The notes beneath the pieces were generated by a model. The model was not told where the DNA came from. It did not search any database and saw only the letters and a list, made by a program, of their open reading frames with translations. From the NCBI GenBank assembly GCA_963699925.1, contig CAVOVT010000007.1:368173-432172 (forward strand): a DNA stretch of 64,000 nucleotides, given 5' to 3'. Of this stretch, positions 9,130 through 30,598 are shown piece by piece. The stretch comes from an uncultured Gammaproteobacteria bacterium (lineage in GTDB: Bacteria > Pseudomonadota > Gammaproteobacteria > Steroidobacterales > Rariloculaceae). Each line of letters begins with the position of its first letter. Position 1 is the stretch's first letter. Made by a program: the position numbers and the translations under genes.

Positions 9130-10193
9130 CTATTTGCCTAAACCGGCCCACGGACCGACCTCGACCTTGCCGGTTGTGTTCCACAGGTCGCCGAGCTCGA
9201 CGCGCACGCCGGTCGCAATGGCGCCCGTCTGTTGCTGGGCCTGGAAGCACGTGAAGTCGGGCCGCTCGCGCCAAGCGAACGGCCCGCACAGACGCTTGCC
9301 GGCGTTGATCGCGGCGTCGTGGACGGCGTTGATCAGCCGCTCGTAGTCGGGCGAGCCCTGCGCGTAGCCCGAGAAGTTGCCGAGGTCGCCGGAGGCGGCG
9401 AAGATCGCGGTCACGCCGGGAATCTTCGCGATCGCCGCGGCGTTCTTCACGCCTTCCAGCGTCTCGATCATCAGGATCAGGACGAGGTTGTCGTTGATCG
9501 TCTGGCGGTAGCCGCCCGGCACGCGCGCCATACATGTCGGCGGCGAACGCGTAGCCGCCGCCGAGGCTGCGCCGGCCGAGCGGCGGGAAGAACGCCCAGT
9601 CGCGGGCCGCGGTGGCCTCTTCGACGGTATCGACGGTCGGCACGACGACGACCAGCGCGCCGCTGTCGAGCGCGTGCTGGATCTCCTTCTCGTTGGTGTA
9701 GGCGACGCGCACGCCCGGCACCGCCCGAGCGTAGGGGCACGCGCCCCACATCTTGGCCGACCTGATCCCAGGTGACCGACGAGTGCTGCATCTCGGTCCA
9801 GATGAAGTCATAGCCGGCGTTGGCCAGCGAGCAGTAGACGGTGGGATCGGTGACGTTGAAGAGCGTGCCGCCGGAGACCTTCTGGCCCGCCATCATCTTG
9901 GCTTTGACCGGATTCCAGATCTTGGCTCCGGCAGGCGCGTTGAAAGCCGGCCCGTATTTCCAGGTCGCGGGATCGAACGGCCCTTGATTGACGCCGTTCG
10001 GCAGCGCCGTCCGAATGGCGCCGCTGTCCTTGCCGGCCGGAGCCGAGAGCGGCGAAGTGACGGGAGGCGACGCGACCGCATACGCGGGCTGCTGACCCGC
10101 TCCCGGGGTCTGCGCCGGCGCCTGCGCGTCGGCCGATGCCGGCGCAGAGGAGATGACCGCGCCGACGACGCTCAAAAGACGGCTGCTTTTCAT
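9130..10193 (-). CDS. HpcH/HpaI aldolase / citrate-lyase-beta family protein with Sec-type signal peptide
   Basis: It starts MKSSRLLSVVGAVISSAPASADA, followed by a Pro/Ala-rich linker. It then reads NPVKAKMMAGQKVSGGTLFNVTDPTVYCSLANAGYDFIWTEMQHS...VVVVPTVDTVEEA...LILMIETLEGVKNAAAIAKIPGVTAIFAASGDLG. The pieces lie in ORFs 9477, 9116 and 9130, so there are at least 2 frame changes. Confidence 0.7.
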
Positions 10194-10347
10194 TCTTGTG
10201 CTCTCCCGGGCGGATGGACGAATACTACGCCTCGGCCCGCAAACCGACTCGCGCGGCGCGCCGGCGGAATCGCGTGACACGAGTTTCATGCGCGACTTTG
10301 CGGCACAATCGTGGACCGTAGTCCCGGCGACCGTCTCTGGGGGGAGC

Positions 10348-11376
10348 ATGCAAGCCAGGCAGTTTCTCGCGACGAGCGCGGCTCTAGTCTTCGCCGCCGC
10401 GCTCGGCGTCGCGCAAGCGCAGCAAGATAGCCGACCGAGGGATTCCACCGCGGACGAGCAGGCCAAGATGCCGACGCCCGGCGGTCGAGCCGCCGCCGAA
10501 GCCGTTCAAGACCGCCGAGGAGCACTACCAATATCTGCTCGACAAGGCGCACGGCGGCACGAAGCACACGATGAGCACGATCCCGGTATGGAGCGGGCTC
10601 TGGGCCGCCGGCAACAACACGATGCCGTCGCTCTTCCTCGTCAACGGCACACTGTCGAACGCGTGGAAGCCCGGGCGCGAAGGTCAAGGAAGGCGTGCTG
10701 ACGCCACCGTACGAGAAGCAATTCAAGGCAGCGGCGAGCCGAGGTCGAGAAATTCGGCGAGCAGCTCTACGACCGGCTCACGAACTGCGAATATCCGGGC
10801 GTGCCGCGGTGGCTCTGGGAGCCGTACGTCAAGGAGTTCGTCAACATGCCGGATCAGTCGTGGTTCATGAACGACATGATGAACGAGACGCGGCGCATCT
10901 ACATCGGCGCGGAGCACATCAACACGGAGGCCAAGCATTTTCCGCTCGGCGACAGCATCGGCTTCTGGGACGGCGACAAGCTCGTGGTCTGGACGAAGTG
11001 GGTCAACCCGGCGGACTACGTGCGCGGCATGCCGCTCACGAGCAACCAGTTCGAGATGGTCGAGACTTGGCAAGAACGGCACAACGCGTCCGGAGCGCGA
11101 ATGCTCGTCACGCAGGTCACGTTCTACGATCCGCTCGCGCTCGTGAAACCGCTGTCGGCCGTCTACACGCACGAGCCGCGGCCCGACCTGCAGAAGGACG
11201 GCGTGCGCATACGCTCGTGGGAATGCGATACGAGCAGCAATTCATACAAGGCGGCCGACGGCAGCACGCAGTTCTATCTGCCGGGCGACCCGCAATACAA
11301 GAATCCGCGCGGCTTCACCGACTTTCCCGATCTGCCGGGCCAGTCGTTGAATCCGATCTTCGATGCGGCGCAGTAG
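10348..11376 (+). CDS. uncharacterised secreted protein, paralogue P1 of a 4-member family in this window
   Basis: A GGGGAG Shine-Dalgarno sits before the ATG at 10348. The protein reads MQARQFLATSAALVFAAALGVAQA, then TNCEYPGVPRWLWEPY and GFWDGDKLVVWTKW. It shares the motifs C..PG.PR and G.W(E/D)G(D/N).LV(V/I) with 29737-30598, 62248-63114 and 63095-64000. There are about 3 frame changes (10465, 10685, 10745). Confidence 0.7.
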
Positions 11377-11400
11377 CTCCAGTTCCTTCAGGTGAGTGAT

Positions 11401-11875
11401 ATGAAGAACCCGATCGTCGTCTCCGCCGCCGCCGTCTCGATCGCGCTGGTCGGCGCACCGGCGCTGGCGCACCACTCGTTCGCGAGCTACGACGTCGTCT
11501 CAGCAGAAGCTCGTCGAAGGCACCGTCACGCAGTGGAATTACAACAATCCGCACAGCTGGCTCATGATCGACGCGCTCGACGCGAACGGCGAAATAAAGA
11601 CGTGGAGCTTCGAAGGCGCCGCGATCGTGCACGCCGCGCGGCAGGGCGTGAACGGCACCACCTACAAGAAAGGCGAGAAGATTCGCGTCGTGATGCACCC
11701 GATGCGCGACGGCCGCAACGCCGGCGCGCTGTGCTTCGTCATCAAGGAAGACGGCACGTTCACGCGGCCGAACGACGGCATCTGCGATTCCGAGGTAGTG
11801 CACGCGCGCTGGGAGCAGAAGGGCTGGCTAGCGAAGGACGCGACGAGCTTGAGCGTGCATCCCGCCAACGAGTGA
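11401..11875 (+). CDS. DUF6152-like small secreted protein, copy 1
   Basis: It reads MKNPIVVSAAAVSIALVGAPALA followed by HHSFA, then KLVEGTVTQWNYNNPHSWLMIDALDANGEIKTWSFEG. There is one frame change near 11498. It lies directly downstream of P1. Confidence 0.65.
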
Positions 11876-13032
11876 CGGCTGCCGTCGGATCATGGCCGCC
11901 TGTTGGTCGCTGACGGCCGGGACGATCCGCTCGAAGGCTGCTCGTAGGCAGTTCCTGACGAGTTGGTCCGGCCGTACATGGGCCGCGTAATAGGCTCGGT
12001 TTTCCTCGCGCATGGCGCGCGCGGTATCCGGCTCATCGAGCAAGCGCTGGCACGCGGCGACGCAGTCTTCGGGCGTCGAAAACGGGAGATAGTGCTGGCC
12101 CTCGACGAGCGGCGCCGCCGTGTCGTAGAACGGCCGTTCGCTCACGATGCACCGGGAGGCAGCCATGTATTCGGCCATCTTCCAACTGGTCGAGTCGTGC
12201 AGCCCGGCGGTATTCACCGCGACGAGGCAGTCCTTGGTGAGCGCTATGTGGCCGCGCAATCCGGGATCCCCCGGGTACAGGCAATCGGGTACATGCGCCG
12301 CGCGTGCTCGGAATGGCGCAACCCGCCAATGAAGCGCGCACCGAAGTGCCCCTTTAGCTCCCGGACGGTATTCGCGCGCAGGTCGTTGACCTCGTTCATG
12401 CGGCCGAGCCGAAAGTTGTCCGGAGCGTCGTCAGGTCCATAGACTCGCGTGCGGTAATAGATCTTGGGCTGAGCCGGGGCGTGCGGACTCGATTCGAACT
12501 CGTCGATGTACATCGGCGGATGCAGCCGAGGATAAGCGCCGATCGCCTTGAGCCTTCGCCTGACGGGCATTGCGACGATGTGTTTCAGCGCCGTCAGCGG
12601 CGTCCTGCGCAGACGACCCGTGGCGATCTGCATTGCGGCGACGTCGCGAATGCTCTGCGAGTAGGACTCCCTGCGACTCGAGCAGGCGTATTGGAGATCC
12701 ATCGGCGCGATCTTGCGCTGCAGGGCCGGAACGAGCTGCGCGATATAGGGGGCGTGGTAGCTGCGCTTGAAGTAGACGTCGGCGGTGTCGAGATCGTCCG
12801 GTGAAGCGATCGTGCGCCAATCCGTGCTGTCGAAACAGATCTCGATGCGGCGGTGTGCCGCTGCGACTGCAACGCGGAGCACCGTTGGAATCGCGTCGTA
12901 GGCGGGCGAAGGTTGTTGGCGCGAGAAATCGAGCTCGACTTCTCCCGCAGCATCGAGCTCGAAAAGACCCGCATAGAGGCCGGATAGATACTCGGTCCGT
13001 TTCGAGTGCACCGTGATCTCGAGAGGCGCCAT
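11828..13032 (-). CDS. orphan glycosyltransferase-like protein (C-terminal GT1 / CgeB-type domain), lower GC than surroundings
   Basis: AAGGAAG precedes the ATG at 13032. The protein starts MAPLEITVHSKRTEYLSGLYAG. The C-terminal piece in ORF 11828..12259 has KMAEYMAASRCIVSERPFYDTAAPLVEGQHYLPFSTPEDCVAACQRLLDEP. There is one frame change near 12250. The 3' end overlaps the convergent DUF6152 gene by 48 nt, so the end is uncertain. Confidence 0.55.
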
Positions 13033-13261
13033 TTCTTCTTCCTTGTCGGCCAGGCGTCGTTCGCGCAATCGCGAAAGGTGTGCTCGGCTCCTTCCCAGCA
13101 GCGTCGTTCGACCCGGAAAAGAAAACGGCCGGTTCCTCGGGTGCGTTGACTGCAAAGCGATGCCGAGCGCGCGCTCATCGAATCGGCCGAGTGGGCCGTC
13201 CGTCGTCCGTTCGTCTCGGACGCGCTCTACGATCCGAGTCGAAGCCATGAGCTTATCTTTT

Positions 13262-13287
13262 GAACATCCTATACTTACAGGATGTTC
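13262..13287. promoter_or_regulatory. perfect 9-bp inverted repeat GAACATCCT-N8-AGGATGTTC in a low-GC intergenic region
   Basis: I read it directly from the sequence. No U-tract follows on either strand, so an operator or other protein site is more likely than a terminator. Confidence 0.3.
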
Positions 13288-13784
13288 CTAATGTATAAAT
13301 TCGCATGCCGGCGCGTGCGACCGGATTCGATCCGCTTAAATTGGACCACGGCGACCGCTGTCTATGAGTGAAGATTCTCGACGTGTCGGTGTGACCATTC
13401 CGTTGCCGCGAACCTTCGTCCTAGTCCAAGCTTCCGTCTGGGACTCCGAGCCACAGGAGGGTCGCGCCATGGGAACACAGAGGGATGAAGGCGATCAGCA
13501 CCAAGAGCCCCGATGCCAATCTGTGTGATCGACTCCCTGCGTAACGTCGAGCAATCGCGGCACTATTCGACGCATGGCACGACGTCACTACACCGAACGG
13601 CGGCGCCCGCCACAGGGTGCCCGCCCACGACGCAGGACCGAGGACCTGAACACAACCGAGCCGTGATGGAGAGTCGCGAGCAAAGGAGTGATCCCAAGGA
13701 TCGGCTGACCTCAAGGGGCAAGCCGAGGGGCGCGCTCGCGCGCGGAATCGGCCAGAGCCCGGCGCGCAGCGCCAACCTCTGGTC

Positions 13785-15599
13785 ATGAGCGACGCCCCGG
13801 AAAAGAACGCACAGCCGGGGGTCGCCGAGACCGCGCGAGGCAGGGGCCTTCAGCCAGACCCGCATGATCTTCCGCGCGATCTTCGCGTCGCCGGTGGGCC
13901 GGCGACTCATCGTGCTGCTGACGGCGCTGGTGGTCGCGATTCTCGTGACGAGCTACGGGCAGATCATCCTGAACGGCTGGAACCAGCCGTTCTACGACGC
14001 GATCACGCGCCGCGACCTGAACGATTTCCTCTACCAGCTCGGCGTGTACTTCGTGATCGTCGGCGAGCCTCCTCGTTCTCGACGTCGCGCAGCGCTGGCT
14101 CAACGAGACCGTCAAGTTTCGACTTCGCGAGGGTCTGACGCGCGATCTGTTGAAGCTCTGGATGGCGCCGCGTCGCGCGTTCTGGCTCGCCACGAGCGGC
14201 GGTCCGATGGGCGTGAACCCCGACCAGCGCATGACCGAGGATGCGAGACAGGCTCTGCGACCTATCGACCGATCTGTCGATCGGGCTTTTCCGCTCGACG
14301 GTGCTGCTCGTGAGCTTCGCGGGCGTGCTCTGGAAGATCTCCGAAGACTTCACGTTCCGCGTCGGCGGCGTCGACTACGCGGTGCCGGGTTTCATGCTGT
14401 GGGCCGCCATGTCGTATGCGGTGGTCGGCTCGCTTCTGAGCTATTGGGTCGGCCGCAGCCTGGTCACGCGCAACGCCGACCGCTACGCGCGCGAGGCGGA
14501 TCTGCGCTTCGCGCTCGTCCGCATCAACGAGCACGTCGACGGCATCGCGCTCGCGGACAGGCGAAGCCGGACGAGCGCCGGCGCGTCGAAACGCATCTCG
14601 GCAACGTCATGCTCGCGATGCGCCGGCTCGTTCGCGGCCTCACCAATCTCACCTGGGTCACGGCCGGGTTCGGCTGGGTCACGGGCATCGCGCCGATCCT
14701 CGTGGCGGCGCCGCTGTACTTCACCGGCAAGACGTCGTTCGGCGGCATGATGATGGCGGCGGCCGCGTTCACGCAGGCGCAGGGCTCGCTGCGCTGGTTC
14801 GTCGACAACTTCAGCGCGATCGCGGACTGGCGCGCCACGCTGCTGCGCGTGGCGAACTTCCGGTCCGCGCTCGTCGCGACGGAGTCGCAGCCGGCTGTCG
14901 GCAGCCGTATCGACTATGCCGAGGGCCCTCCCGGCGCGATGGTCTTCGAAGAGCTGCAGGTCGAATCCCCGGTCGGCCGCGAGGGCTTCAAGGAGCGGCA
15001 CGTCGTGATTCGCGCCGGCGAGCACACACTGATCTGCGGCGCGCCGGGTGAAGGCAAGACGCCGCTATTCCGCGCGCTCTCGGGACTTTGGCCCTGGGGC
15101 AGCGGCCGGATCGTCCGGCCGCGGGGCGAATCCGTGATGTACGTGCCGCGCGGCACGCCATACCTGCCGCGCGGCACGCTACGCGAAGTGCTCGCCTACC
15201 CGCTCATGACCGACCGCTTCGCCGACCGCGATTACCTGGACGCGCTCGAACGCACCGGCCTCGGGCGATACGCAACGAGTCTCGACGCGCAGCAGCGCTG
15301 GGATCGCGAGCTCCGGGAAGACGAGCAGATGGCGCTCGCCCTCGCCCGAGTCGTCCTCCGGGCTCCGCCCTGGGTCGTGTTCGACGACACTTTCTCGGCG
15401 ATGGAGGACGAGACGCTCGAGCGAGTTGTCGAGATGTTCATGCACGAGCTCACGCGAGACCACGGTCATTTACGTTGGCCGCAGCACGCAGATGCACTTG
15501 CCATTGTTCGCTCGCGTGCTGCACCTGCGAAGAGTACCGAGCGGGCGCAGCATAGAAGAACAATGGGTAACCGAACGGATCCTGCGCAAAGCACGATGA
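13785..15599 (+). CDS. SbmA/BacA-type (ABC_membrane_2) TMD fused to an ABC NBD, YddA/Rv1819c-like, paralogue A; degenerate NBD motifs
   Basis: The main ORF starts at 13864 and reads MIFRAIFASPVGRRLIVLL...NGWNQPFYDAI...GVNPDQRMTED...GAPGEGKTPLFRALSGLWPWGSGRI...LREDEQMALALARVVL...WVVFDDTFSAMEDE...VIYVGRS. A conserved 26-codon ORF starts at 13785, in another frame. There are about 4 frame changes (14065, 14252, 14560, 15455). The stop TGA at 15597-15599 overlaps the next ATG. Confidence 0.8.
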
Positions 15600-17876
15600 G
15601 ACTTCTGCCGACGACGCTCCTTCTGCAGATCGTGCTCGCCATCGCCCTCGCCGGCCAGCCGACGGCCGCGGCCGCGCAGGAGTTCGGGTTCGAGCCGCCG
15701 CCGAGCGCCACGGATCCCGCGTTTCCGGCTGCGCTGCGCGACCTCGCCGAGCGCATCGTGCCGATCTACCAGGACGACGATTCCACTCGCTATCTGGCCA
15801 ATCTCGCGGCGCTGCAGATGACGGCCGGCGACCCGGCAGGCGGCGCACGAGACCCGCATCGCGTTGGACAAGCGGCTGCAGAGCAAGGAGGGGCGATCGC
15901 CGACCGGTCGCGCCGATCGTCTATGCCATCTACGTGCAGGCGCGGGCGACCGAGGCGGAAGAGCACGTGGCGTTCGCGAGCGCCTTCAAGCAGGCGTTCC
16001 GAGCGACGTTCGAACCCCTCGACGACCTTGCCGTCTACGACCTCGAGAGCTCGTTCCTCTCACCGATCGAGCCGCTGCGCGAAGCCGTCCAGCACGCGCT
16101 CGACCAGCAAGGCGACAAGAAGGAGATCGCGCTCGAGCCGGCGCTCGATCTCGTGCGGGCGTGGGCCGGATTCGAGGCGTACCGCAGCATCGAAGGCCTC
16201 GTTCGACCGCTGTTCGCTGCGGAGAACGACAAGCGCTACGTCGTCGAAGAGGTCGCGATCCCGGTTGCAGAAGGCGCGAGCGTCGCCGCCACGTTGGTGC
16301 GTCCGCGCGGCGCCACGGAGGCCGGCAAGGTCGCGACGCTGCTCGAGTTCACGCTCGATCGCTCGAGCCGGGACGCGCGAGAGTCCGCGGCGCACGGCTA
16401 TGCGAGCGTGCTCGCGCTGGCGCGCATTGCGGGCGATCCGCCCGCCCGTCCTCGGGCGCCGTTCGAGTCCGATGGCGACGACGCGCGCGCGGTCATCGAC
16501 TGGATTGCGAAGCAGCCGTGGAGCGACGGCCGCGTAGGCATGCAAGGCACGGGCTACGGCGGCTTCGTCGCCTGGTCGGCGGCGAAGCGGCTGCCGCCGG
16601 CGTTGAAAGCCATCGCGACGTCCGATCCGATGGCGCCCGGCATCGACGTGCCGATGCGAGGCCGGATCGTGCTGAGCTCGGCCTATCGCTGGGTCTACGA
16701 AATGCTGCCGCCGCCCGGGCAAGATCATGCCGTACGACGCGGCGCACTGGCGCAACTTCGACGACGACTGGTACCGGTCCGGCCGGTCGTACCGCGAATT
16801 CGCCGACGCTGCCGGGCCCGGGCAGCGCGGTTTTCCGCCGCTGGTTGAATCATCCGAGCTACGACCGGTTCTGGCAGAAGTGGCTGCCGTTCGGTGCGGA
16901 GTTCGCGAAGATCGACATACCGGTGCTCACGGTCACCGGCTATTACTCGGCCGGTCGAGACCGCCGCGCTCTACTACTTCACGGAGCACCATCAACACGA
17001 CTCCGAACGCCGATCACGCGTTGCTGATCGGCCCGTTCGACGAGCAGAGCGTCGAAAAGGGCGTCACCGAGCCCGCGGTTCGCGGCTCGACGCCGGACGC
17101 CGTGGCGCGCATCGACCCGAACGCCGCGCGCTACGAATGGTTCGCTCACGCGCTCGGCGGCGCGGAGCGGCCGGAGCTCTTCAGCGGCAACGTCAACTAC
17201 GAGCTCGCCGGCGCGAACGAATGGCGCCACGAGGCCTCGCTCGAGGCGCTCGAGCAGAAGCGCACGCGTTTCTATCTCGAGGCGTCGCCGGGCGGGACGG
17301 CCAACACGCTGGCCGCGAAGAAGCGCCGGTCCCCGACGTCTCTCACCGCGACCCTCGAGTCTTCGCGACCGCCGCGACGCCGAGTGGCGGCCCTCGCGCG
17401 AGCTCGTGCTCGACGTCTTGCCGGCGCGCGACGGCACGGCACTATTCATGACGGAGCCCTTCTCCACCCCGGTCGACATCGCAGGCCGGCTCAGCGGCGT
17501 TCTGGATTTCACGATCAACAAGCACGACGTGGACTTGGTGCTGATGCTCTACGAGCTGCGTTCGACCGGCGAATACGTGAAGCTCTTCGACCCCGCCTAC
17601 GCGTTTCGTGCGAGCTACGCCAAGGACCGCGTCCACCGTCATCTGCTGGTCGCGGGCGTGCGGCAGCAGCTGCCGTTTCAGAGCGAGAAGATGGTCGGGC
17701 GCCAGACTCGCAGGCCGGCAGCCGGTTGGTGCTCGCGCTCGGGATCAACAAGCGCGCGGACAGCAGTCAACTACGGCACCGGCAAAGATGTCAGCGAGGA
17801 ATCGGTCGGCGACGCGCGTGCCCCGGTGCGGATCCGCTGGCACGACGGCAGCTTCATCGAGATTCCGTCGCCCTAA
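15596..17876 (+). CDS. CocE/NonD (peptidase S15, X-Pro dipeptidyl-peptidase-like) family protein with signal peptide; nucleophile Ser position reads Gly
   Basis: It reads MRLLPTTLLLQIVLAIALAGQPTAAAAQ, then VATLLEFTLDRS, DWIAKQPWSDGRVGMQGTGYGGFVAWSAA and IPVLTVTGYYSAG. The C-terminus is NYGTGKDVSEESVGDARAPVRIRWHDGSFIEIPSP. About 9 frame changes are needed. Confidence 0.7.
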
Positions 17877-18106
17877 CCCCTGCGCACGTTTTTCACGATT
17901 TTGAGCTGCGATCTCAAGAGTGAGGCGCCGGCGTCGTAGCGCGTCTCGAGAGTGTCGTCGCGTTGTCGCCCCACGGGGCGCCGCGGTGCGTACGCGCCGA
18001 CCAAGAAGCACAACGCGGGCATCGCTTGGGCCGCGGTCACCGCCTGCAGATCTCGAAGCAGCTTCGCGGTCTCTCTGGCTGCCTCCGCCTGAAACTCGCC
18101 TTGCAT
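17873..18106 (-). CDS. possible small hypothetical protein (77 aa)
   Basis: This ORF-track entry lies in the convergent gap between two genes. Third-position GC looks high when read by hand. I recognise no family. Confidence 0.25.
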   Translation of the reverse strand: MQGEFQAEAARETAKLLRDLQAVTAAQAMPALCFLVGAYAPRRPVGRQRDDTLETRYDAGASLLRSQLKIVKNVRRG

Positions 18107-18215
18107 GTGCGCGCCCTCTCGTCGATCGGATTCCGCCTCCGCTGCAAAACCCGTGCCTCGAGGCCTCGTGCTTGTACGGCCGATGGATCCTTCCTAGACC
18201 CGAGCCGCCGCGCTT

Positions 18216-20629
18216 TTAGCCGGGGAATTCCGCCGCGTCGACGCGCCACTGCACGCGAGTTTCGTCTTCGAACCGCACGTGCACGCGCATGACGTTCGGG
18301 TCGACGAGCCTCAGGCTATAGCCCGCGTAATCGCGGACGAGGAACTGCCGCCCTCCCCACGTCCAGGGATGGTCGCCCGGGACGTAGACGAACACGTCGT
18401 GCTCGCTCGCTTGCGGACCGTCGAAATTCCGCTCAAGGCGCCCTCGCTCCATTCCAGCGCACGTCCTCGATCTCGATCGCGCCCTGCGTGACGTGCCGGC
18501 TCGTCGAGAGGAGCTGCGGCGCGCCCGTCGCCGCATGCAGCGCGAGCAGCGTGACGCTGCCGGGCTCGATCGTCACGGCGAGCTCGTTCGTGACCTCTCC
18601 GAAAAACCGCTGTCGCCAGAAATCGAAGCGAGATAGGTCTTGGCCGGATCCAGCCCGAGCCGGCTCAACGGGAAGCGGCGCTCGACCGCGGCACCGAGGT
18701 CGGGATTGAAGAGACGCGACGACCGACCACGAGGCGAACGGCCGTTCGACACGCATCACGAACGTCGTCGGGAATGTCGGCATCGAAGAGATCGACCGGA
18801 ATGGCGGCCTCGCCGTACGGACGGCGTGATCTTTTTCAGGATTTCGAGCTTGGCCGGGTCGAGGTCGACGAGCCGGTCGCCCGAGATCATGTTGCCGCCG
18901 GAGAGCGCGATGAGCGTCGCGGCCGCTTGCGCCTGCTGCGCGGTCAGCAAGTCGAGGCACACGTGGTCGACATCATTGACCCACGTGCGCCGATGAAAGT
19001 AGTAGCGCTTCGCGGCGGCCGCCGCGCTGCACGCGGGGTCCTCGAAGTACTGCTTCCACGCCGCCGCGGCGTAGCCGTAGTTGATGTCGGCCTCGACGCG
19101 CATGCTGTCGATGAGGCCCACCGTGGTGTTCGCCGGGGCCGCAATCGAGGATGTGGCAGTCGTCGCCGGCCGCGGCGCGCATGATCTCGAGGCCCCGCCG
19201 ATAGACCTCGGCGGACGACAGCGTCGGATCTCGGTAGCGCTCCGCCGCGAGGATCGACCACGCCATGAAGTCGATCTTGATCATCTCGTAGCCCCAGCGG
19301 CGCGCGATCGTCTCGAAGAGGTCGCGCAACCAATCCGCGGCCTCGGGATGCGTGATGTCGAGGCAGTAGCGCTTCACGACCTCGCGCGAGCGCCGCCGGC
19401 GAATTCTCGTTCTCCCAGTTGCCGATGCGTTGCAGCGAGCCGTCGCGGCGGCGCACGAGCCACTCGGGATGCCGCCGGAACACTTCGCTCTGCTCGGAGA
19501 TGACGTAGGGCGCGATCCAAAGTCCCGGTTTGAATCCGTGCGCCTTGATCCTCTCCGCGAGCCATTTCATCCCGTGAGGGAATCGCTCGTTGCCTTCCCA
19601 GTCGCCGAGCGAGCGTTGGTAGCCGTCGTCGATCTGCACGTACTCGAGCCCGAACGGCCGGAGGTGTCTGCGGCGAATGCGGTGTTCCGCAAGACCTCGT
19701 CCTCGGAGACTTCGGCGAGCGTGTAGAACCAGCTGCACCAACCGTTGACGATGGAGCGCGTGCGCGCGTTTTGCGCCGTTCCCACGGCGTCGGCATACTC
19801 CTCGAGCGCCGCGTAAGGAGTCGCGGCGACGTTCAGCATGAAGCGGTTAGAGCCGATCGATTGTCCCGGGGCGCAGCGTGATCGGCGGCGCATACACGGA
19901 TTCACCCAAGAACGAGATCTCGCCCTCGCCGGTGCTCGCGACGAGAACGAGACCGAGCGCGTGCGTGTTCTCGAGATACCCGAGAACCACGCCTTCGCGG
20001 TCGTAGCCGCTGAACAGGCCGACGTTCCACCAGCTCGCGACGGTCGGGGTGGCGCGGCGCGATCGATTCGTTCACGAGCCGCGCGCCCTTGATCGGGCGG
20101 ACGCAGGCTCGCGCGGCGGATCGGCCGCAAACGCGTGGACTCGGCCCGCGTCGTAGAACATCTCGCCGTTCGTGATGCACGCCGCGACGCCCGGGACGCG
20201 CAGCGTGCCGCCTTCGTTCGCGACGACGCGCAGCGGTTCGAGACTCGTCGACGACGATGTCGCGCGACGAGACGTTCGTGCAGTGCGGCTCGATCGTCAC
20301 CATCGGCCGACGGTCGTACACGACGACTTCGACGCCGAGGTCGAGAAGCTTGTCGGGGATCGCGGCAGACCACGCTCATGCGCTGCCCGGAGCCCAAGTC
20401 GGTCGCTGAACGTAGACGATGGCGACGGAGTGCTCGCGGCCGAGGCGACGCGGTGGACTGTTTGCCGACTTCGGTGTTCGCGCAAGCGACGCCGCCAGTG
20501 AGAAACGGCGTGCCGTCGCCGCGGAGGATCGAGAACGTTCCGGTCCGCGTATCGAACGAGACGGCGAAGTGATCGCTCGCGATCGTTCAACACCGCGCCC
20601 GGAGATTCGTCTCGAGCGGACGGCTTCAT
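18216..20629 (-). CDS. clan GH-D alpha-galactosidase-like glycoside hydrolase (GH36-like)
   Basis: Fragments lie across at least 7 frames. They include WCSWFYTLAEVSEDEVL, YVQIDDGYQRSLGDWEGNERFPHGMKWLAERIKAHGFKPGLWIAPY, WGYEMIKIDFMAWS and LSGGNMISGDRLVDLD. The C-terminus is FVYVPGDHPWTWGGRQFLVRDYAGYSLRLV. The start MKPSARDE at 20629 is inferred. Confidence 0.6.
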
Positions 20630-22450
20630 GGCCCGAACGCAGGCTCCGTTCGGTTGCGCGCGTCTCTCTTCTCGCGTCTCTCGCCCTTGGAGCCTCGTCA
20701 AATGCAGCACGCGCGTGAACAGCGGCATGTGCGCCTGCGTGCTGCGCCCGATGTGAATGATGGTCGTCCGCGTGAGCGTGCTTCGTGAACAGCGAACGAT
20801 CGACCCGCCTGAGCGTCTCGTCCTCCATCGAGGAGAACGTGTCGTCGAACACGACCCAGAGCGGAGCGTGCAACACCACACGCGCGAGCGCCAACGCCAT
20901 CTGCTCGTCCTCGCTGAGCTCGCGATCCCAGCGCTTGTCGGCGTCGAGGCTCTTCACGTACCGCCTGAGGCCCATGCGCTCGAGCGCCTGCGCGTAAGCC
21001 CGGTCTGCGAAGCGGTCGGTGAGCGACGGGTACGCGAGCGCTTCGCGCAGCGTGCCGCGCGGTAGGTACGGCGTGCCGCGCGGCACATACATCACCGATT
21101 CGCCGCGCGGCCGGACGATGCGGCCGCTGCCCCAGGGCCAGAGCCCCGACAGCGCGCGGAAGAGCGGCGTCTTCCCTCGACCGGCGCTCCGCAGATCAGC
21201 ACGTGCTGGCCGGCCCGGATCACGACGTGCCGCTCTTGCGAGCGCCACGCGCCCGACGGGCGAATCGACTTGGAGCTCTTCGAACACCATCTCGCCCGGC
21301 GCGCCTTCGGCGTACTCGATCTCGGCTCGCGCCGTTGTGCTGCGGTTCGCTGACGAGTCAGCGCCGCCCTGAAGTTCGCCACGCGCAGCAGCGTGGCGCG
21401 CCAATCCGCGATCGCACTGAAGTTGTCGACGAACCAGTGCAGCGAGCCCTGCGCCTGCGTGAACGCGGCCGCCGCCATCATCATGCCGCCGAAGCTGGTC
21501 TTGCTCGCTGAAATACAGCGGCGCGGCGATCAGGATCGGCGCGATGCCCGTGATCCAGCCGAATCCGGCCGTCACCCAAGTGAGATTGGTGAGCGCCGCG
21601 AACGAGCCGGCGCATCGCGATCATGACGTTGCCGAGATGCATTTCGGCGCGGCGGCGCTCGTCGGCCTCGCCCTGCCGCGAGCGCGATGCCGTCGACGTG
21701 CTCGTTGATGTCGACGAGCGCGAAGCGCAGGTCGGCCTCGCGCGCGTAGCGGTCGGCGTTGAGCCGGACAGGCTCCGGCCCACCACGTAGCTCAGCAGCG
21801 AGCCCACCACCGCATACGAGATCGCGGCCCACAGCATGAAGCCCGGCACGGCGTACTCGACTCCGCCGACGCTGGAACGTGAAGTCCTCGCGAAATCGTC
21901 CAGAGCACGCCCGCGAAGCTCACGAACAGCACGCGTCGAACGGAAGAGCCCGATCGAGAGATCGGTCGAGATGTCGCAGAGCTTGGTCGCGTCGTCGGTC
22001 ATGCGTTGATCGGGGTTCACGCCGATCGCGACCGCCGTTGGTCGCGAGCCAGAACGCGCGGCGCGGCAGCCATCCAGAGCGCGAGCAGATCGCGCGTCAG
22101 ACCCTCGCGCAGCCGATAACTGGATCGTCTCGTTGAGCCAGCGCTGCGCGACGTCGAGAACGAGCAGGCTGCCGACGATCGCGAAGTACACGCCGAGCTG
22201 GTAGAGGAACGCGTTCAGGTCGCGGCGCGTGATCGCGTCGTAGAACGGCTGGTTCCAGCGGTTCAGGATGATCTGCCCATACGTCGTGACGAGGATCGCG
22301 ACCGTCATCGCAGCGAGCAGCAGGATCAGCCGGCGCCCGACCGGCGACGCGAAGATCGCGCGGTAGATCATCGCGGGCTTGGTGGAGTGCGCCGGCTCGC
22401 GCCGCTTCGTTGACGCCGGCCGTGTTCCTTTGGGTAGCTGTCGCGTTCAT
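20626..22450 (-). CDS. SbmA/BacA-type TMD-NBD transporter, paralogue B; same degenerate NBD motifs
   Basis: The main ORF starts at 22371 and reads MIYRAIFASPVGRRLILLL...NRWNQPFYDAI...GVNPDQRMTDD...GKTPLFRALSGLWPWGSGRI...LSEDEQMALALARVVL...WVVFDDTFSSMEDE...IIHIGRS. The conserved upstream ATG at 22450 overlaps the GH15 stop. There are at least 7 frame changes. The 3' end is inferred as a TGA overlapping the GH36-like ATG, by analogy with paralogue A. Confidence 0.7.
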
Positions 22451-23805
22451 AGGAAGACCACCGCCCGTCGGGCCGTCACGCAAGAGATGAAGCTCGGCAT
22501 AGCTCCACGCGAGATGCTTCGCCGACGTCTGTTCGCCGGTGCGTTGATCGAATTGTTCCGACAGGTCGCCGCTCGAGGGCGTGAATGCGCGAACGGTCGC
22601 GAGGAATCCGTCGCCGCGCGCGATCCACGGTGCGCTTTCGTCGCTGCCGGCTTCCGGCGCGTCCGCCGCGAGGAAGCAGAACTCCGCGGCACCGAGCGTC
22701 GAGAAGTAGTACGCGCCGCCGGAATAGTAGACGTCGTCCGCGAAGCGGCCCATCGGCGGGCGCGCGCTCGGGCGGCCGGCCGTGATTGATCGGATAGAGC
22801 CGGTCGAACAGGTCCTCGAGCCGGTCGAGCGTCGCGTGCATCCGAGGATCGCGCGCGGAATGCACTTCGCTGCCGTCACGCGGAGTGGAGGACGCTCAGG
22901 ATCACCGAGATGTCGAGCATTTTCGTCGAAGACGCGCCGGGCGGCATGATGCGTGATCGGTAATAGCCTGCATCGTCGAGCCAGAACCGATCGAGCCAAT
23001 CGAGCAACGCGCTGCGCGTCGTCGCGCAACGCGGCTGCGCCGTCGACCTCGCCGCGAGCTCGGAGCCAGTCGGCGCCGAGGCGGAGCGCCGCGGCCGCGA
23101 CGCGCAGCGTGAAGTAGTGGTGGCCGAGCTCCTCCTCCCAGATGTCGAACGACGGCTCGCGCCAACGGGCCGCGATGAACGCGAGGTCGATGCGCAGCAG
23201 ACGCTCCGCGTCGGCCAGCGTCGCCGCACTGACGGCGCCGCGAGCTGCTCGGCGGCGAGCGTGCGCAACCAGCGCAGCACGGCGAGCGCGCGCAACGCGA
23301 ACCGTCGTGCTGCGGCCGGGTCCAGCGCAGCATGTCGAGCGTGCCGTCCGGGTTCACGCGCGTGTCGGCGAAGACCGCGTCTCCCGAAACGGCGGCGAGC
23401 TCTTCGCCGCGGAGGTATTGCACGAACTCCGGAGTGACATTCTCGCGCCACTGCGCCGACGCGGTCAGCGCGCGCCCGTCGAGCATCTCTGAGCGACAAG
23501 CTGAAGCGCACGAAATCGGCGAAGTGCGTGCAGCGCTTCCGCGCCGAGGTCTCCGGTCTCGTAGAGCAGACGCACGGCGTCGATGACGATCGCGGAATCG
23601 CGGAACCAGTGAAAGAAGTAGTCGGGGTCCGGGTCGTAGGACCGCGAGCACGGGCGACGCGACGACCGAGCCCGCGACCGGCCTCACGGTTTGCCCGAAG
23701 CCCGGCCGCTCCTTGACGATGTCGCACGCGGAGACGCTCTTCAGCATCGCGGCCACGGCGTGCCGGTACTCGCGGGCGAGCCACTGCTCGAGACGTCTCC
23801 GTCAC
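22447..23805 (-). CDS. glycoside hydrolase family 15 (glucoamylase-like)
   Basis: It has LEQWLAREYRHAVAAMLKSVS...PGFGQTVRPVAGSVVASP, DPDYFFHWFRDSAIVIDAV, RWTRPQHDG and SFDIWEEELGHHYFT. It also has GRFADDVYYSGGAYYFSTLGAAEF, and HLAWSYAE followed, after a 1-nt correction near 22493, by FISCVTARRAVVFL and a stop. The GTG start at 23805 is inferred from a GTGA overlap with the upstream gene. There are several frame changes. Confidence 0.65.
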
Positions 23806-25230
23806 TGTCGGTGCAGCTTCCAACGCGGGGCTCGAGAAACCGAGCCGGCGAAGCCCGGCTTGCACTTCCGGCACCGCCATGAAGAGCTTCCACAACAGTC
23901 CCGTCCGGTGGTTCTCGATCATGAGGATGATCGGGCCCTGATCGATGGCCAGAAAGGTGTCCGCGTACCAGCTTTGGCTCTCGCAGAAAGCGTCGACGAA
24001 GCCGAGCTCGCGCCAAAGACGCTTGCCGTGGCGCGTCGAGAAAATGCCGGAGCACGGCCGATCGACCTCGGCGCGCGCATACGGCAAGCTCGCGAGCGCA
24101 GCCGTCGGGCTGATCGTGCCGTTGTCGTTGTCGGGAGCGTGGGCGGAGTACCCGGACGGATCGTCGCTCGCGGTCAGCCCCCAGCACGATTCGCCGTAGC
24201 CTTCGAATCGGCCGGGATTCGCGACGCAATGGGCGCGGTTGATCCGCACGTGGCGCACGTTCTGCTCCCAGTAGTCCGCGTACCGGTCCACGAGCCCGCG
24301 CGGATCGAGGCCGCAAAACGAGTAGTGCGCGAAGAACAGCGGGCCGCCGTACGGCATGCCGAGCGGCAGCTCGATGCCATACCAGGATTTGCCGTTGCGA
24401 AATCCGGGGCCGCTCGCGAAACCGCGGTGGTAGACCACGGGCTCGATCGCGTGACGCGGCGAGCCGAGCCGCCAGCACGTATGTGATCAGGCACTCGTTC
24501 CAGCCGCGAATCGCATGATTCATGGCCCAGCCGTGCGTCGGGCTCCAATGCCAGTAGAGCACCTCTTGCCCGCCTCGCGTGAACCAGCTCCACTCCACCT
24601 CGTCCCATAGGCTCGAGATTCGCGATCGCGCGCCGACTTCTTCCGGTGTGTCTCGGTCGAAATACTCGCGCGCGCACAGCAGGCCCATCATCAGAAACGA
24701 CGTCTCGACGAGATCCGCCGCATCGTCCTTGCGCGAAGAACGGAATGGTTTCGCCCGTGCGGCCGTTCATGAAGTGCGGATAGGCGCCGTGATAGCGGCG
24801 CGCACGCACGAGCAGATCGAGCATGCGGCCGAGGCGCTCGAGCGCCGCGCCGCGAGTCACCCAGCCGCGCTCCACGGCGACGATCAGCGCCATGACCCCG
24901 AAGCCCGAGCCGCCGATCGTGATCCATCGCGTCGACCTGCGCACGCTTGCCGGACGTGCGCCGGTCGAACGCGAGACCGCTGTCGGGATGCGCGCCTTCC
25001 CAGAAATAGCGGAAGGTCTGCCGCTGCACGGCCTCGAGCAGCTCTTCGTCGGGTAACGACGCGAGCGCAACCGGATCTGCATCCGCGACTCGCGTGCTCG
25101 GCGACGCCGCGCGCGTTACGCGCGCCGTCGACGTGACCCGCGTCTTCGCCGCGCCCTTTCGCGTGTCCCTACGTTTCCCGCCCGACGCGGCCGGCCGGGA
25201 TCCTTTCGACTTCGGCAAGTGACGCCTCAC
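23802..25230 (-). CDS. GH144-like (DUF3131, 'glucoamylase family protein') endo-beta-1,2-glucanase candidate
   Basis: It has QRQTFRYFWEGAHPDSGLAFDR, ITIGGSGFGVMALIVAVERGWVTR and HGAYPHFMNGRTGE. It also has WSPTHGWAMNHAIRGWNECLITYVLAA, PLFFAHYSFCGLDPRGL, YGESCWGLTASDDPSGY and AIDQGPIILMIENHRTGLLW. No signal peptide is evident. There are several frame changes, and the 3' end is approximate. Confidence 0.7.
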
Positions 25231-25289
25231 TCCTGACGCGCGTGCCGCGCCCGCTGTAGGCGCCCTGCGAGTTTTGCTGCGGATGCGTC

Positions 25290-27464
25290 ATGATGGTCTC
25301 GGTGAGCAGGATCGACAAGCTGATCGGGCAAATGACGCTGGCGGAGAAGCTCGGTCAACTCACGATGACCGCCGCGGGCTACGCCGTGACGGGGCCCGTG
25401 ATCGCCGGCGATTCCACCGACTCGATCCGCAACGGGACGCATCGGCAACCTGCTCAACCTCGTCGGCGCGCAGTCACGTTCACGACATGCAGCGAATCGC
25501 CGTCGAGGAATCGCGGCTCGGCATTCCGCTCTTGATCGGCTTGGACGTGATCCACGGCCATCGCACGATCTTTCCGGTGCCGCTCGCCGAGGCCGCGACG
25601 TTCGATCCGCGGATCTGGGAGCGCACGGCACGCGAAGCCGCCCGAGAGACGGCGGCCGACGGCCTCGCGATGACGTTCGCGCCGATGCTGGACGTCTCGC
25701 GCGATCCGCGCTGGGGCCGAACCGTCGAAGGGCCGGGCGAGGATCCGTGGCTCGCCGCGCAGATCGCGCGCGCGAAAGTCCGCGGCTTTCAGGGCGCCGA
25801 CCTCGCCTCCGCCGAGTCGGTCGCCGCGACCGCCAAGCACTTCTGCGCGTACGGGCCCGTGACGGCCGGGCGCGACTACGCGTCCGGTCGACGTCTCCGA
25901 GCGACGCTGCGCGAGGTGCATCTGCCGGCCTTCGCGGCGGCAGTCGCCGCCGGCGTTGCCGCGATCATGCCGGCGTTCACCGATCTCGCCGGGCATCCCG
26001 ATGACGGCGCACAAGCGCGCTGCTGCGCGATTACCTGCGCGGCGGAGCTCGGCTTCGACGGCGTGATCGTCAGCGACTACAACGCGATCCGCGAGCTCAT
26101 CCATCACGGCGTGGCGGCGCGACATCGTCGACGCGGCCGTGCTGGCGCTCAAGGCCGGCGTGGACATCGACATGATGGCCGGAGGCGTATCGCAGAGGGC
26201 CTGCCCGTGGCGCTCGAGCGCGGCCTCGTCACGATCGACGAGATCGACGAGTGCGTGCGCCGGGTGCTGCGGCTCAAGGAGCGTCTCGGGCTGTTCGACG
26301 ACCCGTACCGGCGCGGAGCGAGCGCGGAGACGTCCGACGCCGATCGCCGCTCGCCGGCGCCTCGCGCGCGACGTCGGCGCGAAGTCGCTCGTGCTCGCTG
26401 AAGAACGCCGGCGACGCGCTGCCGATTGCGGCGCGCAGCGCGCGGGTCTGCGTGATCGGCCCGCTCGCCGACGCGTGGCGCGAGATGCGCGGTCCGTGGG
26501 CCGCCGCGGGCTACCACGAGCCGAGCGTGACCGTGCTCGCCGGCCTGCGCGAGGCGCTGCCGGATGCGGCGATCACGCACGCCGAAGGCGTGACGATCGA
26601 AGGCGACGACTCGTCGCAGCGTCGCGGCGGCCGTCGAGCTCGCGAGCGGCGCGGACGTCGTCGTGCTTTGCGTCGGCGAAGCGGCCGACATGAGCGGCGA
26701 GGCCGCGTCGCGCGCGTACCCCGAGCTGCCCGGCGAGCAACGCGCGCTCGCCGAGGCGGTGCTCGAGCGCGCGCGCGGCGCGGGAGCTCCGGTCGTCGTC
26801 GTGCTCTTCTGCGGCCGGCCGCTGATCGTTCCGTGGCTCGCGGAGCGAGCCGACGCGCTGCTCGTCGCGTGGTTCCCGGGGCGGGAAGCGGGCAACGCCA
26901 TCGCCGACGTGCTGACGGGCCGCGTGTCGCCGTCGCGGCCGAACGCCGATCACTTGGCCGCGCGCGCTCGGGCAGATTCCGCTGTTCTATGGCCAGCGAT
27001 CCGGCGGCCGGCCCGAAAACCCCGCCGGACCGGTTCACGAGCAAGTATCTCGACTCGCCGAGCTCGCCGCTGTTTCCGTTCGGCTTCGGCCTCACGTACG
27101 GCCGTTTTTCGTATGCCGAACCTGCGCGTCGAGCCCGGAGATCGTGACCGCGTCGGACGTGATCGAGGTCAGCGTCGACGTCACGAACGAGGGAGCGCGC
27201 GCCGCCGAGGAAACCGTATTCCTATTCGTCCGCGATCGCGTCGCGAGCGTCGCGCGGCCGCTGCTCGAGCTCAAAGACGTCGCGAAGATCGCTTTGGAGC
27301 CCGGCGCGACGGGCACCGCGCGACTGCAGGTGCAGGCGACGGATTTGCGTTTCTTGGGTCTCGACCTCACGCCCGTGCTCGAAGCGGGCGAGATCGAGAT
27401 TCTCGTCGGGCCCTGCGCGGACTCGTCGCAGCTCTTGGCGGCGCGGCTGATCGTCCGGGCGTAA
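25290..27464 (+). CDS. GH3 beta-glucosidase (BglX-like), no obvious signal peptide
   Basis: It has MMVSVSRIDKLIGQMTLAEKLGQL, RLGIPLLIGLDVIHGHRT, FAPMLDVSRDPRWGRTVEGPGEDP and AATAKHFCAYG. It also has GFDGVIVSDYNAI, and the C-terminus is EIEILVGPCADSSQLLAARLIVRA. It is divergent from the GH144 operon. There are many frame changes. Confidence 0.8.
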
Positions 27465-27528
27465 CGGTCGCTGGGCGGCGTCGGCACGGCGTGCGTCGCA
27501 CGCGATCGCGCGCAGCGCGCGCCGCGAG

Positions 27529-29689: not shown

Positions 29690-29736
29690 GATGCACGGAC
29701 TCTTGCGGTTGTTCGGATGCGTGTGGGCGCTCGGGT

Positions 29737-30598
29737 CTATTTGTACAGCTTCACGTCCTGCTCGTTGTCGAGGCAAATCTCTTCGAGCATCTGGGTGTCC
29801 ACCTGCACGGCCATTTCGATCGTGACCGACCAGGGCTGCGTGTAGGCCTTCGGGATCGTTCACCGCGATCTCGACCTGCATGAGTCCGAAGTTGACGCGC
29901 TTCAGCCGCTCGGTGACGCGCGCCGATTCCGTCACCGGGCTGCCCTGGATGTCGAGCCACATGTCGTCGCGAATGCCGTTGGTCTCGATGACCAGCGTGT
30001 CGCCTTCCCAGTGCGCGGTCGAGTAGCCGTTCCAGGTCGGGTTCGGATTCTCGGGCAGCGGCCGTCCGTCGATGAAGATCTCGCGGTAGGCCGCGTTGAA
30101 TTCGTGCAGCACCACCATCTCGTCGGGCGTCTGCATGATCTTGATGTGCTGCGGCAGCGTCCAGGCGCGCGGGAAGTTCGGCGGCATGCAGTAGGTGTGC
30201 GGATCGTCGCGGCCGCCGTTGGCGCGCCGCTTCACCATCTGCTCCTTGGACCACTCGGTGTAGGGCAGGCCGCCCTGCAGCTTGATGCCGAGGTTGATCT
30301 GCTCGCGCGCCATGCGCTCTTCCTGGATGCAGTCCTTCTCCTTGCAGTAGTCCTTCGCGGGGACATTGGCGAACCACATGCCGGAGAAATCCGGCTTGCC
30401 GTCGCGGGTGCGCGGCGCCGGCGCTTTCAGATCCGGGGCGCCGCTGGCGGTGCGCGGAATTCCCGGCGTGGGATAGTCGAGCCACTGAGCGAACGCGACG
30501 GCGGGACTTGCACCGAGCACTGCCGCGAGCAGCGCAGCGCGAAGCACGCGCGATCGCGCGCCGATGACGGCGAGCGGGGTGCCGTGCCCGATGGGCAT
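29737..30598 (-). CDS. uncharacterised secreted protein, paralogue P2
   Basis: It reads MPIGHGTPLAVIGARSRVLRAALLAAVLGASPAVAFA, then HTYCMPPNFPRAWTLP and YSTAHWEGDTLVIETNG. The C-terminus, read by hand, is VNDPKAYTQPWSVTIEMAVQVDTQMLEEICLDNEQDVKLYK. There is one frame change near 29850. Confidence 0.7.

Follow-up and report, generated by a model that had tools for sequence, protein, structure and literature searches.

In the 64,000-nucleotide stretch of contig CAVOVT010000007.1 analysed here (the window, from an uncultured gammaproteobacterium of the Rariloculaceae), two genes that face each other, paralogue A on the forward strand and paralogue B on the reverse strand, encode transporters in which a transmembrane domain (TMD) is fused to a C-terminal nucleotide-binding domain (NBD). 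Judged from their sequences, A and B appear to represent a lineage of the YddA/Rv1819c type whose ATP sites are naturally disabled and which resides within a conserved β-1,2-glucan operon. The reading that we prefer, at a probability of about 0.45, is that these proteins may be inner-membrane importers of β-1,2-glucan fragments, acting with a periplasmic pseudo-hydrolase partner and not driven by ATP hydrolysis. The two genes and the motifs of their NBDs are as follows.

13785-15599, forward strand: paralogue A, transporter with fused TMD and NBD, about 602 amino acids (aa), 86% identical to homologue P0004 over 602 aa
22450-20626, reverse strand: paralogue B, same architecture as A, about 602 aa by frameshift-aware alignment
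15038-15061, forward strand: Walker A of A, GAPGEGKT, intact
21168-21179, reverse strand: the RGKT part of the Walker A of B, GAP?RGKT, which is broken by one indel
15143-15163, forward strand: Q-loop of A, VPRGTPY, Gln replaced by Arg in the alignment to ABCD1/ABCD3 and Rv1819c
21066-21086, reverse strand: Q-loop of B, VPRGTPY
15311-15328, forward strand: signature of A, LREDEQ, fourth residue changed from Gly to Asp (LSPGEQ in Rv1819c, LSxGEQ in ABCD proteins)
20901-20918, reverse strand: signature of B, LSEDEQ
15371-15391, forward strand: Walker B of A, WVVFDDT, catalytic Glu replaced by Asp
20838-20858, reverse strand: Walker B of B, WVVFDDT
15465-15488, forward strand: H-loop region of A, VIYVGRST, with Arg where canonical relatives have G-HR
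20738-20761, reverse strand: H-loop region of B, IIHIGRST

The surroundings of both genes are about 68% G+C and all the genes there are split across reading frames. Plain tblastn ran through the frameshifted stretches, and the genes were rebuilt by a custom frameshift-aware protein-to-DNA alignment against clean homologues. The longer starts at 13785 and 22450 are probably the correct ones, since the homologues of about 602 aa have the same N-terminal extension. The reconstructed proteins are 80% identical and convergently encoded, face to face, and share the long identical runs described in an earlier note on this DNA, among them a 45-aa run, GKTPLFRALSGLWPWGSGRIVRPRGESVMYVPRGTPYLPRGTLRE, at 15053-15187 (forward strand) and 21042-21176 (reverse strand).

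Motif equivalences were set by residue-level alignments to Rv1819c and ABCD. Compared with the canonical states, the clade has L[R/S]EDEQ instead of LSxGEQ in the signature, FDD instead of LDE in Walker B, G-R instead of G-HR in the H-loop and VPRGTPY instead of VPQ-RPY in the Q-loop, while Walker A (canonically GxxGxGK[ST]) is intact. Four of the five motifs of a catalytically competent NBD are therefore replaced and only Walker A is kept. The earlier note had located the TMD motif NPDQRMT(E/D)D, both Walker A motifs (that of B after one indel) and the odd signature, Walker B and H-loop, and all of these are where it placed them; its list of three degenerate motifs holds, but it had overlooked the Gln-to-Arg replacement in the Q-loop.

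These deviations are conserved. They recur in the 120 closest database homologues (78-88% identity, clean, from many independent assemblies) and in 83 transporters from 80 species-level genomes (58-88% identity) belonging to Steroidobacteraceae, Nevskiales and uncultured Gammaproteobacteria, which bears out the earlier view that the signature, Walker B and H-loop states are not indel noise. The close orthologues, in which canonical LSGGQ, DE and H-loop motifs had been thought possible, retain the deviant states instead. The 120 homologues read G[AT]PGEGKT at Walker A, L[RS]E[DE]EQ at the signature, WVVFDDT and IIHIGRS; in the set of 83 the signature is LS.DEQ, PRGTPY is the commonest form of the Q-loop, the H-loop His is absent and Walker A is kept as G.PG.GKT in most sequences. 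Across the 83 transporters there is almost no variation in the signature Asp or the Q-loop Arg, whereas the residue after the Walker B Asp is G (18 sequences), D, E or N. Such drift at the catalytic-base position beside a near-fixed signature Asp fits a domain that has been retained after the loss of catalysis. The mean pairwise identity of the NBD is 63%, against 73% for the TMD, indicating that the NBD is maintained, though less conserved. By position, the Gly-to-Asp change of the signature corresponds to G551D of CFTR, a substitution that abolishes ATP-dependent gating. A direct contact between the Q-loop Arg and the signature Asp, bridging the two NBDs of a dimer, is a speculation.

Substitutions of these kinds (the Walker B Asp followed by a residue other than Glu, a changed signature, no H-loop His) also occur in heterodimeric exporters such as TM287/288, BmrCD, PatAB, Rv1273c/72c, TAP and CFTR. 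In those proteins, however, one consensus site remains and drives the cycle, whereas both composite sites would be degenerate in a homodimer of A or B as well as in an A/B heterodimer. Rescue of one ATP site by heterodimer formation can be ruled out on the basis of the motif states: not only A and B but both copies at the two-copy loci L025, L034 and L039 have the Gly-to-Asp signature and lack the H-loop His. Because the signature is degenerate in every copy, no homo- or heterodimer would rebuild a consensus ATP site. To our knowledge, ATP sites of the degenerate kind have been described only where a functional consensus site accompanies them.

The TMDs contain the following motifs.

14216-14242, forward strand: NPDQRMTED of A, EAA-like, its Glu aligned with SbmA E193
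14216-14276, forward strand: whole TMD motif stretch of A, which also contains LSTDL, its Asp aligned with SbmA E203
21991-22017, reverse strand: NPDQRMTDD of B

In Pfam, A matches ABC_membrane_2 (PF06472) at 2.7e-32 over residues 4-285 and SbmA_BacA at 1.1e-17; the match of the NBD to ABC_tran (PF00005) is weak, at 33.4 bits with a cut-off of 25. Nothing in NCBIfam exceeded its threshold, the SbmA equivalog model reaching 41 bits against a cut-off of 492 bits. That model aligned only at profile positions 91-401 of 413, from protein residue 16 on, and the N-terminal TM0 region of SbmA is thus apparently absent in A and B. The closest solved structures are Rv1819c (5e-45, residues 72-547) followed by ABCD1/3/4, and the NBD can be aligned to the same proteins. 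The AlphaFold2 (AF2) model of a clean homologue, P0011, has a pLDDT of 58 and contains an α/β domain after about residue 373, as judged by secondary structure only. The earlier assignment of A and B to the SbmA/BacA type does not hold in the strict sense on these data. They are fused TMD-NBD proteins of the YddA/BclA/Rv1819c/ABCD lineage, with a TMD homologous to that of SbmA but not of the SbmA type.

The architecture of A and B is that of Rv1819c (the M. tuberculosis BacA; PDB 6TQE/6TQF), E. coli YddA, Pectobacterium FusD and Bradyrhizobium BclA; the similarity to the Rv1819c/YddA group comprises a six-helix TMD of the ABC_membrane_2 type, the NPDQR..ED motif and the fused C-terminal NBD. 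The NBD of YddA is canonical (GYSGAGKT, SQTP, LSSGEKQ, LDETTS, VTHQ), whereas in A and B the Q-loop, signature, catalytic base and H-loop are replaced. Members of this group and SbmA import bulky hydrophilic cargo (Rv1819c, BclA, SbmA and FusD/YddA; PMC13316013, PMC12003926, PMC5095587), YddA/FusD is encoded and works with a periplasmic processing protein (PMC5095587), and transport by BclA requires ATP hydrolysis (PMC12003926). The genomic context also differs: glycoside hydrolases surround A and B, whereas the Rv1819c/YddA/FusD/BclA group is associated with peptide or iron uptake. SbmA itself has no NBD, an extra N-terminal TM0 region and no coupling helices (PMC13316013). The proton-driven SbmA/BacA proteins (SLiPT; PDB 7P34) resemble A and B in the homologous TMD and may, to judge from a low-identity alignment, share acidic residues at six positions of a ladder discussed below, and it is plausible that both transport without ATP hydrolysis. 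Nevertheless, SbmA consists of a TMD of about 400 aa with TM0, whereas A and B have about 602 aa, a fused NBD and no TM0, and are much closer to YddA/Rv1819c.

The facing arrangement described in the earlier note is not a general feature. A and B are each 81-83% identical to the single copy of a related genome and, being 80% identical to each other, probably arose by a recent lineage-specific duplication; most genomes have one copy at the locus, and the facing pair also occurs in L001, a close relative. The two genes form an inverted repeat of about 1.8 kb, with roughly 80% DNA identity, around about 5 kb containing the S15-like and GH36 genes described below, and inversion of the enclosed segment could occur between its arms.

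In order to place the NBD states in the wider family, 1.8 billion cluster representatives were searched exhaustively with HMMER, and 107 full-length relatives among the top 150 were compared. Relatives at 36% identity or less are almost uniformly canonical (GxSGxGKS, PQ-RPY, LSxGEQQ, LDEATS, G-HR), and the nearest fully canonical ones among the top 150 are P0133 at 43% and P0145 at 38% identity. In nearly all closer relatives the NBD is decayed, and many have lost Walker A too; 33 of the 107 representatives retain three or fewer of the five motifs. A neighbour-joining tree of the TMD only, which is rough and carries no support values, groups A and B in a 17-leaf clade without any fully canonical member; the decayed representatives cluster about this clade, and a few independent events of NBD decay are placed elsewhere. 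As sister lineages have also lost Walker A, the TMD seems able to work without a P-loop. Proton-driven transporters of the SbmA type have been proposed to derive from a YddA-like ABC ancestor by loss of the NBD (2026, PMC13316013). From this point of view the relatives form a graded series, with Walker A kept, Walker A lost and finally no NBD, whose members are candidate intermediates in the origin of SbmA.

The six-residue glutamate ladder of SbmA (E193, E203, E269, E276, E287 and E378; PMC13316013) has Glu or Asp at all six positions in the clade according to MAFFT, in an alignment at 20-30% identity in which the columns of E269 and E287 are ambiguous. At the E203 position, which is Asp (LSTDL) in the clade and Ser in YddA, an acidic residue is present in 19 of 30 decayed and in 20 of 74 canonical representatives (Fisher p 8e-4, not corrected for phylogeny), an association between ladder and decay that is suggestive. 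The earlier suggestion of a form intermediate between YddA/Rv1819c and SbmA fits both the graded decay of the NBD and the acidic residues of the ladder. We found no description of forms with a retained but dead NBD in PMC13316013, in the 2025 survey of SbmA/BacA/BclA or by text searches, the coverage of which was incomplete.

The decayed relatives do not share a single context. Linkage to the glucanase family GH144, a mark of the locus considered below, was ruled out as a trait of them all: P0130 and P0137, both dead at Walker A, lie in other surroundings, and so do the nearest canonical relatives P0133 and P0145. In P0137 (locus L091) Walker A is wholly lost (CPQDVDKT), and the neighbours are FTR1, a cupredoxin and an ABC system with FecCD and Peripla_BP_2, that is, genes of iron uptake. 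Recruitment to other substrates has apparently taken place among the decayed-NBD members of this superfamily. At L085 (6012-9824) a relative at 53% identity takes the form of two tandem transporter genes, with products of 632 and 607 aa, which have GH3 on one side and GH144-GH15 on the other. No ABC_tran match was obtained in Pfam for the upstream copy, and the pair may be a heterodimeric version of the system.

That A and B are ordinary ATP-binding cassette (ABC) transporters, whose odd motifs make up a non-canonical active site and which move their substrate in either direction at the expense of ATP, seems to us unlikely. Retention of the P-loop in most of the 83 orthologues, the well-conserved NBD and its ABC_tran score above the Pfam threshold would agree with this explanation, as would the fact that Asp can serve as a weak general base. 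On the other hand, four of the five motifs are changed together, the catalytic-base position drifts through G, D, E and N with Gly in 18 of 83 sequences, the signature change matches the loss-of-function CFTR G551D, and Walker A is lost in sister lineages as well. Because four catalytic motifs are missing from both ATP sites, hydrolysis is unlikely to power the cycle.

The argument for a glucan substrate comes from the genes around the transporters, most of which belong to glycoside hydrolase (GH) families.

15596-17876, forward strand: gene of the CocE/NonD ('S15') fold, its ATG overlapping the TGA of A, about 10 frame breaks
25095-23806, reverse strand: homologue of endo-β-1,2-glucanases (GH144, PF10091), with which the B operon starts, no signal peptide
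23826-22446, reverse strand: GH15 (glucoamylase-like) gene of the B operon, next to B on its upstream side, no signal peptide
20629-18216, reverse strand: GH36-like (α-galactosidase-type) gene, about 18 frame breaks, no signal peptide
25290-27461, forward strand: GH3 gene of the β-glucosidase family, divergent from the GH144 operon, no signal peptide

This neighbourhood, which the earlier note had missed, appears to be a β-1,2-glucan operon with GH144, GH15 and GH3. The gene order of the B operon is GH144, GH15, B and GH36, and A is followed by the S15-like gene. In about 50 of the 80 genomes, across 58-88% identity, GH3 is divergent from a unit of GH144, GH15, transporter and S15-like gene; this order, often with GH36 after it, is probably the ancestral one, and the unit seems to have been duplicated and split in the window. 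The transporter is followed by the S15-like gene in about 72 of the 83 transporter copies. The overlapping ATGA at both junctions reported in the earlier note is present in the DNA: at 15596-15599 (forward strand) the stop of A overlaps the start of the S15-like gene, and at 20629-20626 (reverse strand) the corrected stop of B, whose tail needs one more frame correction, overlaps the start of the GH36-like gene. The coupling to the putative hydrolase proved to be conserved, as an NTGA overlap of the transporter stop with the S15-like start was found in 65 of about 70 junctions, and in the clean loci that were read the GH144/GH15 and GH15/transporter pairs overlap or abut as well.

The GH144 orthologue from locus L002, to which the window copy is 83% identical, matches the characterised endo-β-1,2-glucanase CpSGL (5GZH) at 2e-142, 4GL3 at 2.8e-165 over residues 11-421 and PF10091 at 2.5e-77. 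The GH15 protein matches glucoamylases at 1e-37, and the GH36-like protein an α-galactosidase of the Thermotoga type at 2e-43. Decayed-NBD relatives at 53% and 48% identity also adjoin GH144, the former together with GH15 and GH3; the S15-like gene was not seen at the locus of the 48% relative, where the linkage to GH144 is still there. A hydrophobic N-terminal segment is present in none of 38 GH144, 3 of 45 GH3, 1 of 14 GH15 and none of 9 GH36 proteins but in 56 of 58 S15-like proteins, and on these counts the glycosidases are predicted to be cytoplasmic and the S15-like protein to be exported.

Known β-1,2-glucan loci (the GH144 SGL clusters and the Listeria SOGP cluster) likewise combine a GH144 homologue, GH3 and transporter genes. 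In the Listeria SOGP cluster, import is by a classical ABC system that depends on a binding protein and is specific for sophoro-oligosaccharides (PMC11842490), and, unlike in the known loci, the endo-glucanase homologue here is predicted to be cytoplasmic. In the literature searched, which was covered incompletely, we came upon no GH144 cluster described as containing a transporter of the YddA type, a GH15 or a pseudo-hydrolase of the CocE fold. A gene of the MdoG/OpgG type, a family of periplasmic glucan proteins, is located at 55768-56716 (reverse strand), about 30 kb from the locus, and its product is 43-51% identical to the copy in L002; in L002 and L004 a homologue lies near or adjacent to the transporter operon, and its position beside the operon in these two loci strengthens the connection to β-1,2-glucan.

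The same surroundings can be read in the opposite direction. The transporter might export a product of the β-1,2-glucan type, for example a trimmed periplasmic glucan, made or remodelled by the cytoplasmic GH144 and GH15 enzymes, while the S15-like protein acts outside. ABC folds of type IV are typically those of exporters, and NdvA/Cgt exports cyclic β-1,2-glucan (PMC11842490); the NdvA/Cgt structure, PDB 7znu, is a weak match of the NBD, and the MdoG/OpgG-like genes near the locus in L002, L004 and the window would suit such a function. We consider it quite unlikely all the same. The operon has no conserved gene for a glucan synthase or glycosyltransferase, the conserved cytoplasmic endo-glucanase and GH3 β-glucosidase are a degradative set, the characterised members of the lineage import, and export without ATP hydrolysis would need some other source of energy. 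The preferred reading of A and B as importers is the most economical one: an endo-β-1,2-glucanase located in the cytoplasm has to be supplied with long chains there, no synthase is encoded in the operon, and import is the direction of the characterised relatives.

The partner gene belongs to a hydrolase family. The S15-like protein starts with a predicted Sec-type signal peptide, MRLLPTTLLLQIVLAIALAG, and has at its N-terminus an additional helical domain of about 180 aa, which AF2 predicts with confidence. By sequence it matches Peptidase_S15 (PF02129) at 3.5e-35 and the cocaine esterase CocE at 3.6e-21; the AF2 model (pLDDT 61, with a poor hydrolase core) has CocE as its top Foldseek match at 1.5e-13. 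In comparison with the CocE/NonD (peptidase S15) hydrolases, which it resembles in sequence and in their fold of an α/β-hydrolase plus a β-sandwich, all positions of the triad present in CocE are replaced and the signal peptide and helical domain are additions. At the triad sites the window copy reads QGTGYGG (16543-16563), TGYYSA (16935-16952) and GPFDEQS (17030-17050), with Ser, Asp and His all replaced, and the 120 closest homologues read GxGYGG, TGYYSAG and GPFDE. In the orthologue of Panacagrimonas perspica, whose transporter gene lies at 10001-11800 of locus L072, the changes are Ser117 to Gly, Asp259 to Gln and His287 to Glu (CocE numbering). Among 47 orthologues the His287 position is D or E in 43 and Ser117 is kept in 8. 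The hydrolase proposed in the earlier note therefore stands as to its family, but with the Ser-Asp-His triad gone and with its predicted secretion the protein is probably a secreted pseudo-hydrolase, or possibly an enzyme of a new mechanism, and not a peptidase.

This bears on the idea that A and B import peptides like BclA, SbmA or FusD, with the S15-like protein processing peptides in the periplasm and the glycosidase genes being unrelated neighbours. There is precedent for it within the family, annotation makes the neighbour a CocE/NonD or S15 hydrolase, and in about one third of the loci the transporter and S15-like genes occur without GH144 or GH15 directly upstream. We nevertheless regard it as improbable. 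Besides the missing triad, GH144, GH15, the transporter and the S15-like gene are packed with overlapping stops and starts in clean loci, in an order kept in about 50 genomes across 58-88% identity, and the linkage to GH144 persists down to 48% identity, where the S15-like gene was not seen.

That the motifs and broken frames (6 breaks in A and 17 in B) are artefacts of sequencing noise or of pseudogene decay is hardly credible and is refuted by the same motifs in hundreds of intact homologues from independent assemblies, an isolate genome included, and by a break density equal to that of the neighbouring genes, made up mostly of insertions without in-frame stops. The breaks in A are single-base insertions near 13836, 14062, 14246, 14556, 14563 and 15452; those of B are indels, and in both genes nearly all breaks are single-base insertions outside homopolymers. 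Five neighbouring genes have 3.9-8.0 breaks per kb by the same alignment method, and no in-frame stop was found in the neighbouring genes except the terminal stop of the S15-like gene itself. With an indel density equal to that of its neighbours and no premature in-frame stops, B is apparently unexceptional, and its interpretation as a pseudogene was ruled out; the frame breaks seem to be assembly noise rather than gene decay. Throughout positions 11000-28000 of the window there are 3-9 breaks per kb, overwhelmingly single-base insertions that are not homopolymeric, and gene calls there need frameshift-tolerant methods. The locus L001 of a related organism is comparably noisy.

For the importer of β-1,2-glucan fragments we infer substrate, direction, role of the partner and energy source from the motif states and the operon, and the following scheme can be envisaged. 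A and B would be dimeric ABC-family transporters of the type IV fold in the inner membrane, with an NBD that is under selection but has lost the residues needed for closing around ATP and hydrolysing it. The substrate, β-1,2-glucan or β-1,2-gluco-oligosaccharides of large size, in linear or cyclic form and perhaps with decorations, would arrive in the periplasm and be captured or presented by the secreted pseudo-hydrolase, whose translational coupling would keep it in a fixed ratio to the transporter. The glucan would then pass into the cell by way of a large hydrophilic cavity, in the manner of other bulky hydrophilic cargo taken up by Rv1819c and SbmA, and be degraded to monosaccharides in the cytoplasm by GH144, GH3, GH15 and GH36. 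With its P-loop intact, the NBD is most likely still able to bind nucleotide, and it would serve as a regulatory or structural module. Energy might come from the proton gradient by way of the SbmA-like acidic ladder of the TMD, or uptake might be pulled by hydrolysis in the cytoplasm; a proton-coupled, SbmA-like mechanism is the leading candidate. A bolder version, which we find rather unlikely in its entirety, would make the clade a living intermediate on the SbmA/SLiPT route from ABC to proton-driven transport, that is, a homodimer with both ATP sites dead, an NBD with a nucleotide-sensing or structural role and a full acidic ladder, and at the same time the first inner-membrane importer of large β-1,2-glucans with a dead esterase as periplasmic receptor.

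Several points speak against the importer. Type IV folds are used mostly by exporters, and Asp at the catalytic-base position can give residual hydrolysis in other ABC proteins. Since Walker A is conserved, some ATP-dependent step may have been retained. The AF2 monomer, at pLDDT 58, is too poor for judging NBD geometry or the size of the cavity. The substrate is suggested by the neighbouring genes alone, the locus has no conserved component for uptake across the outer membrane, and in other bacteria the ABC transporter NdvA/Cgt exports cyclic β-1,2-glucan (PMC11842490). The ladder match comes from an alignment at 20-30% identity with E269 and E287 ambiguous, and the enrichment at E203 is uncorrected for phylogeny. 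Finally, the conserved acidic pair of GPFDE at the site of the triad His could mean a new catalytic activity of the S15-like protein rather than a binding role.

Other features of the window may be noted briefly. Three tandem genes of small ankyrin-repeat proteins at 6426-7539 (forward strand) are conserved with L001, the second and third being 92-97% identical at the protein level and the first less so; ankyrin repeats are uncommon in free-living bacteria. Upstream of A, at 11897-13032 (reverse strand), lies a conserved gene whose product, of about 390 aa, shares 73-76% identity with the homologue in L001 and has no Pfam match. Just downstream of the S15-like gene of L002 there is a gene for a secreted 578-aa protein without Pfam match, to which 29735-30253 (reverse strand) and 62605-63072 (forward strand) of the window have weak matches (30-32% identity). 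An Rfam scan of 11-28 kb of the window gave no matches, and the promoter and terminator scan returned nothing above chance.

A conserved lineage in which both ATP sites bear loss-of-function substitutions while the NBD is maintained would make it possible to test the roles of the NBD apart from hydrolysis, and the graded decay series provides candidate, expressible intermediates for the origin of the SbmA type. β-1,2-Glucans act in symbiosis, virulence and osmoadaptation, and the operon points to a previously unnoticed route of β-1,2-glucan uptake and catabolism in soil Gammaproteobacteria, in which a cytoplasmic endo-glucanase implies the import of long chains and which would also include two uncharacterised accessory enzymes (GH15 and GH36) and the pseudo-hydrolase partner. 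The system is present in the isolate genome of Panacagrimonas perspica DSM 26377, a cultured host that makes it testable.

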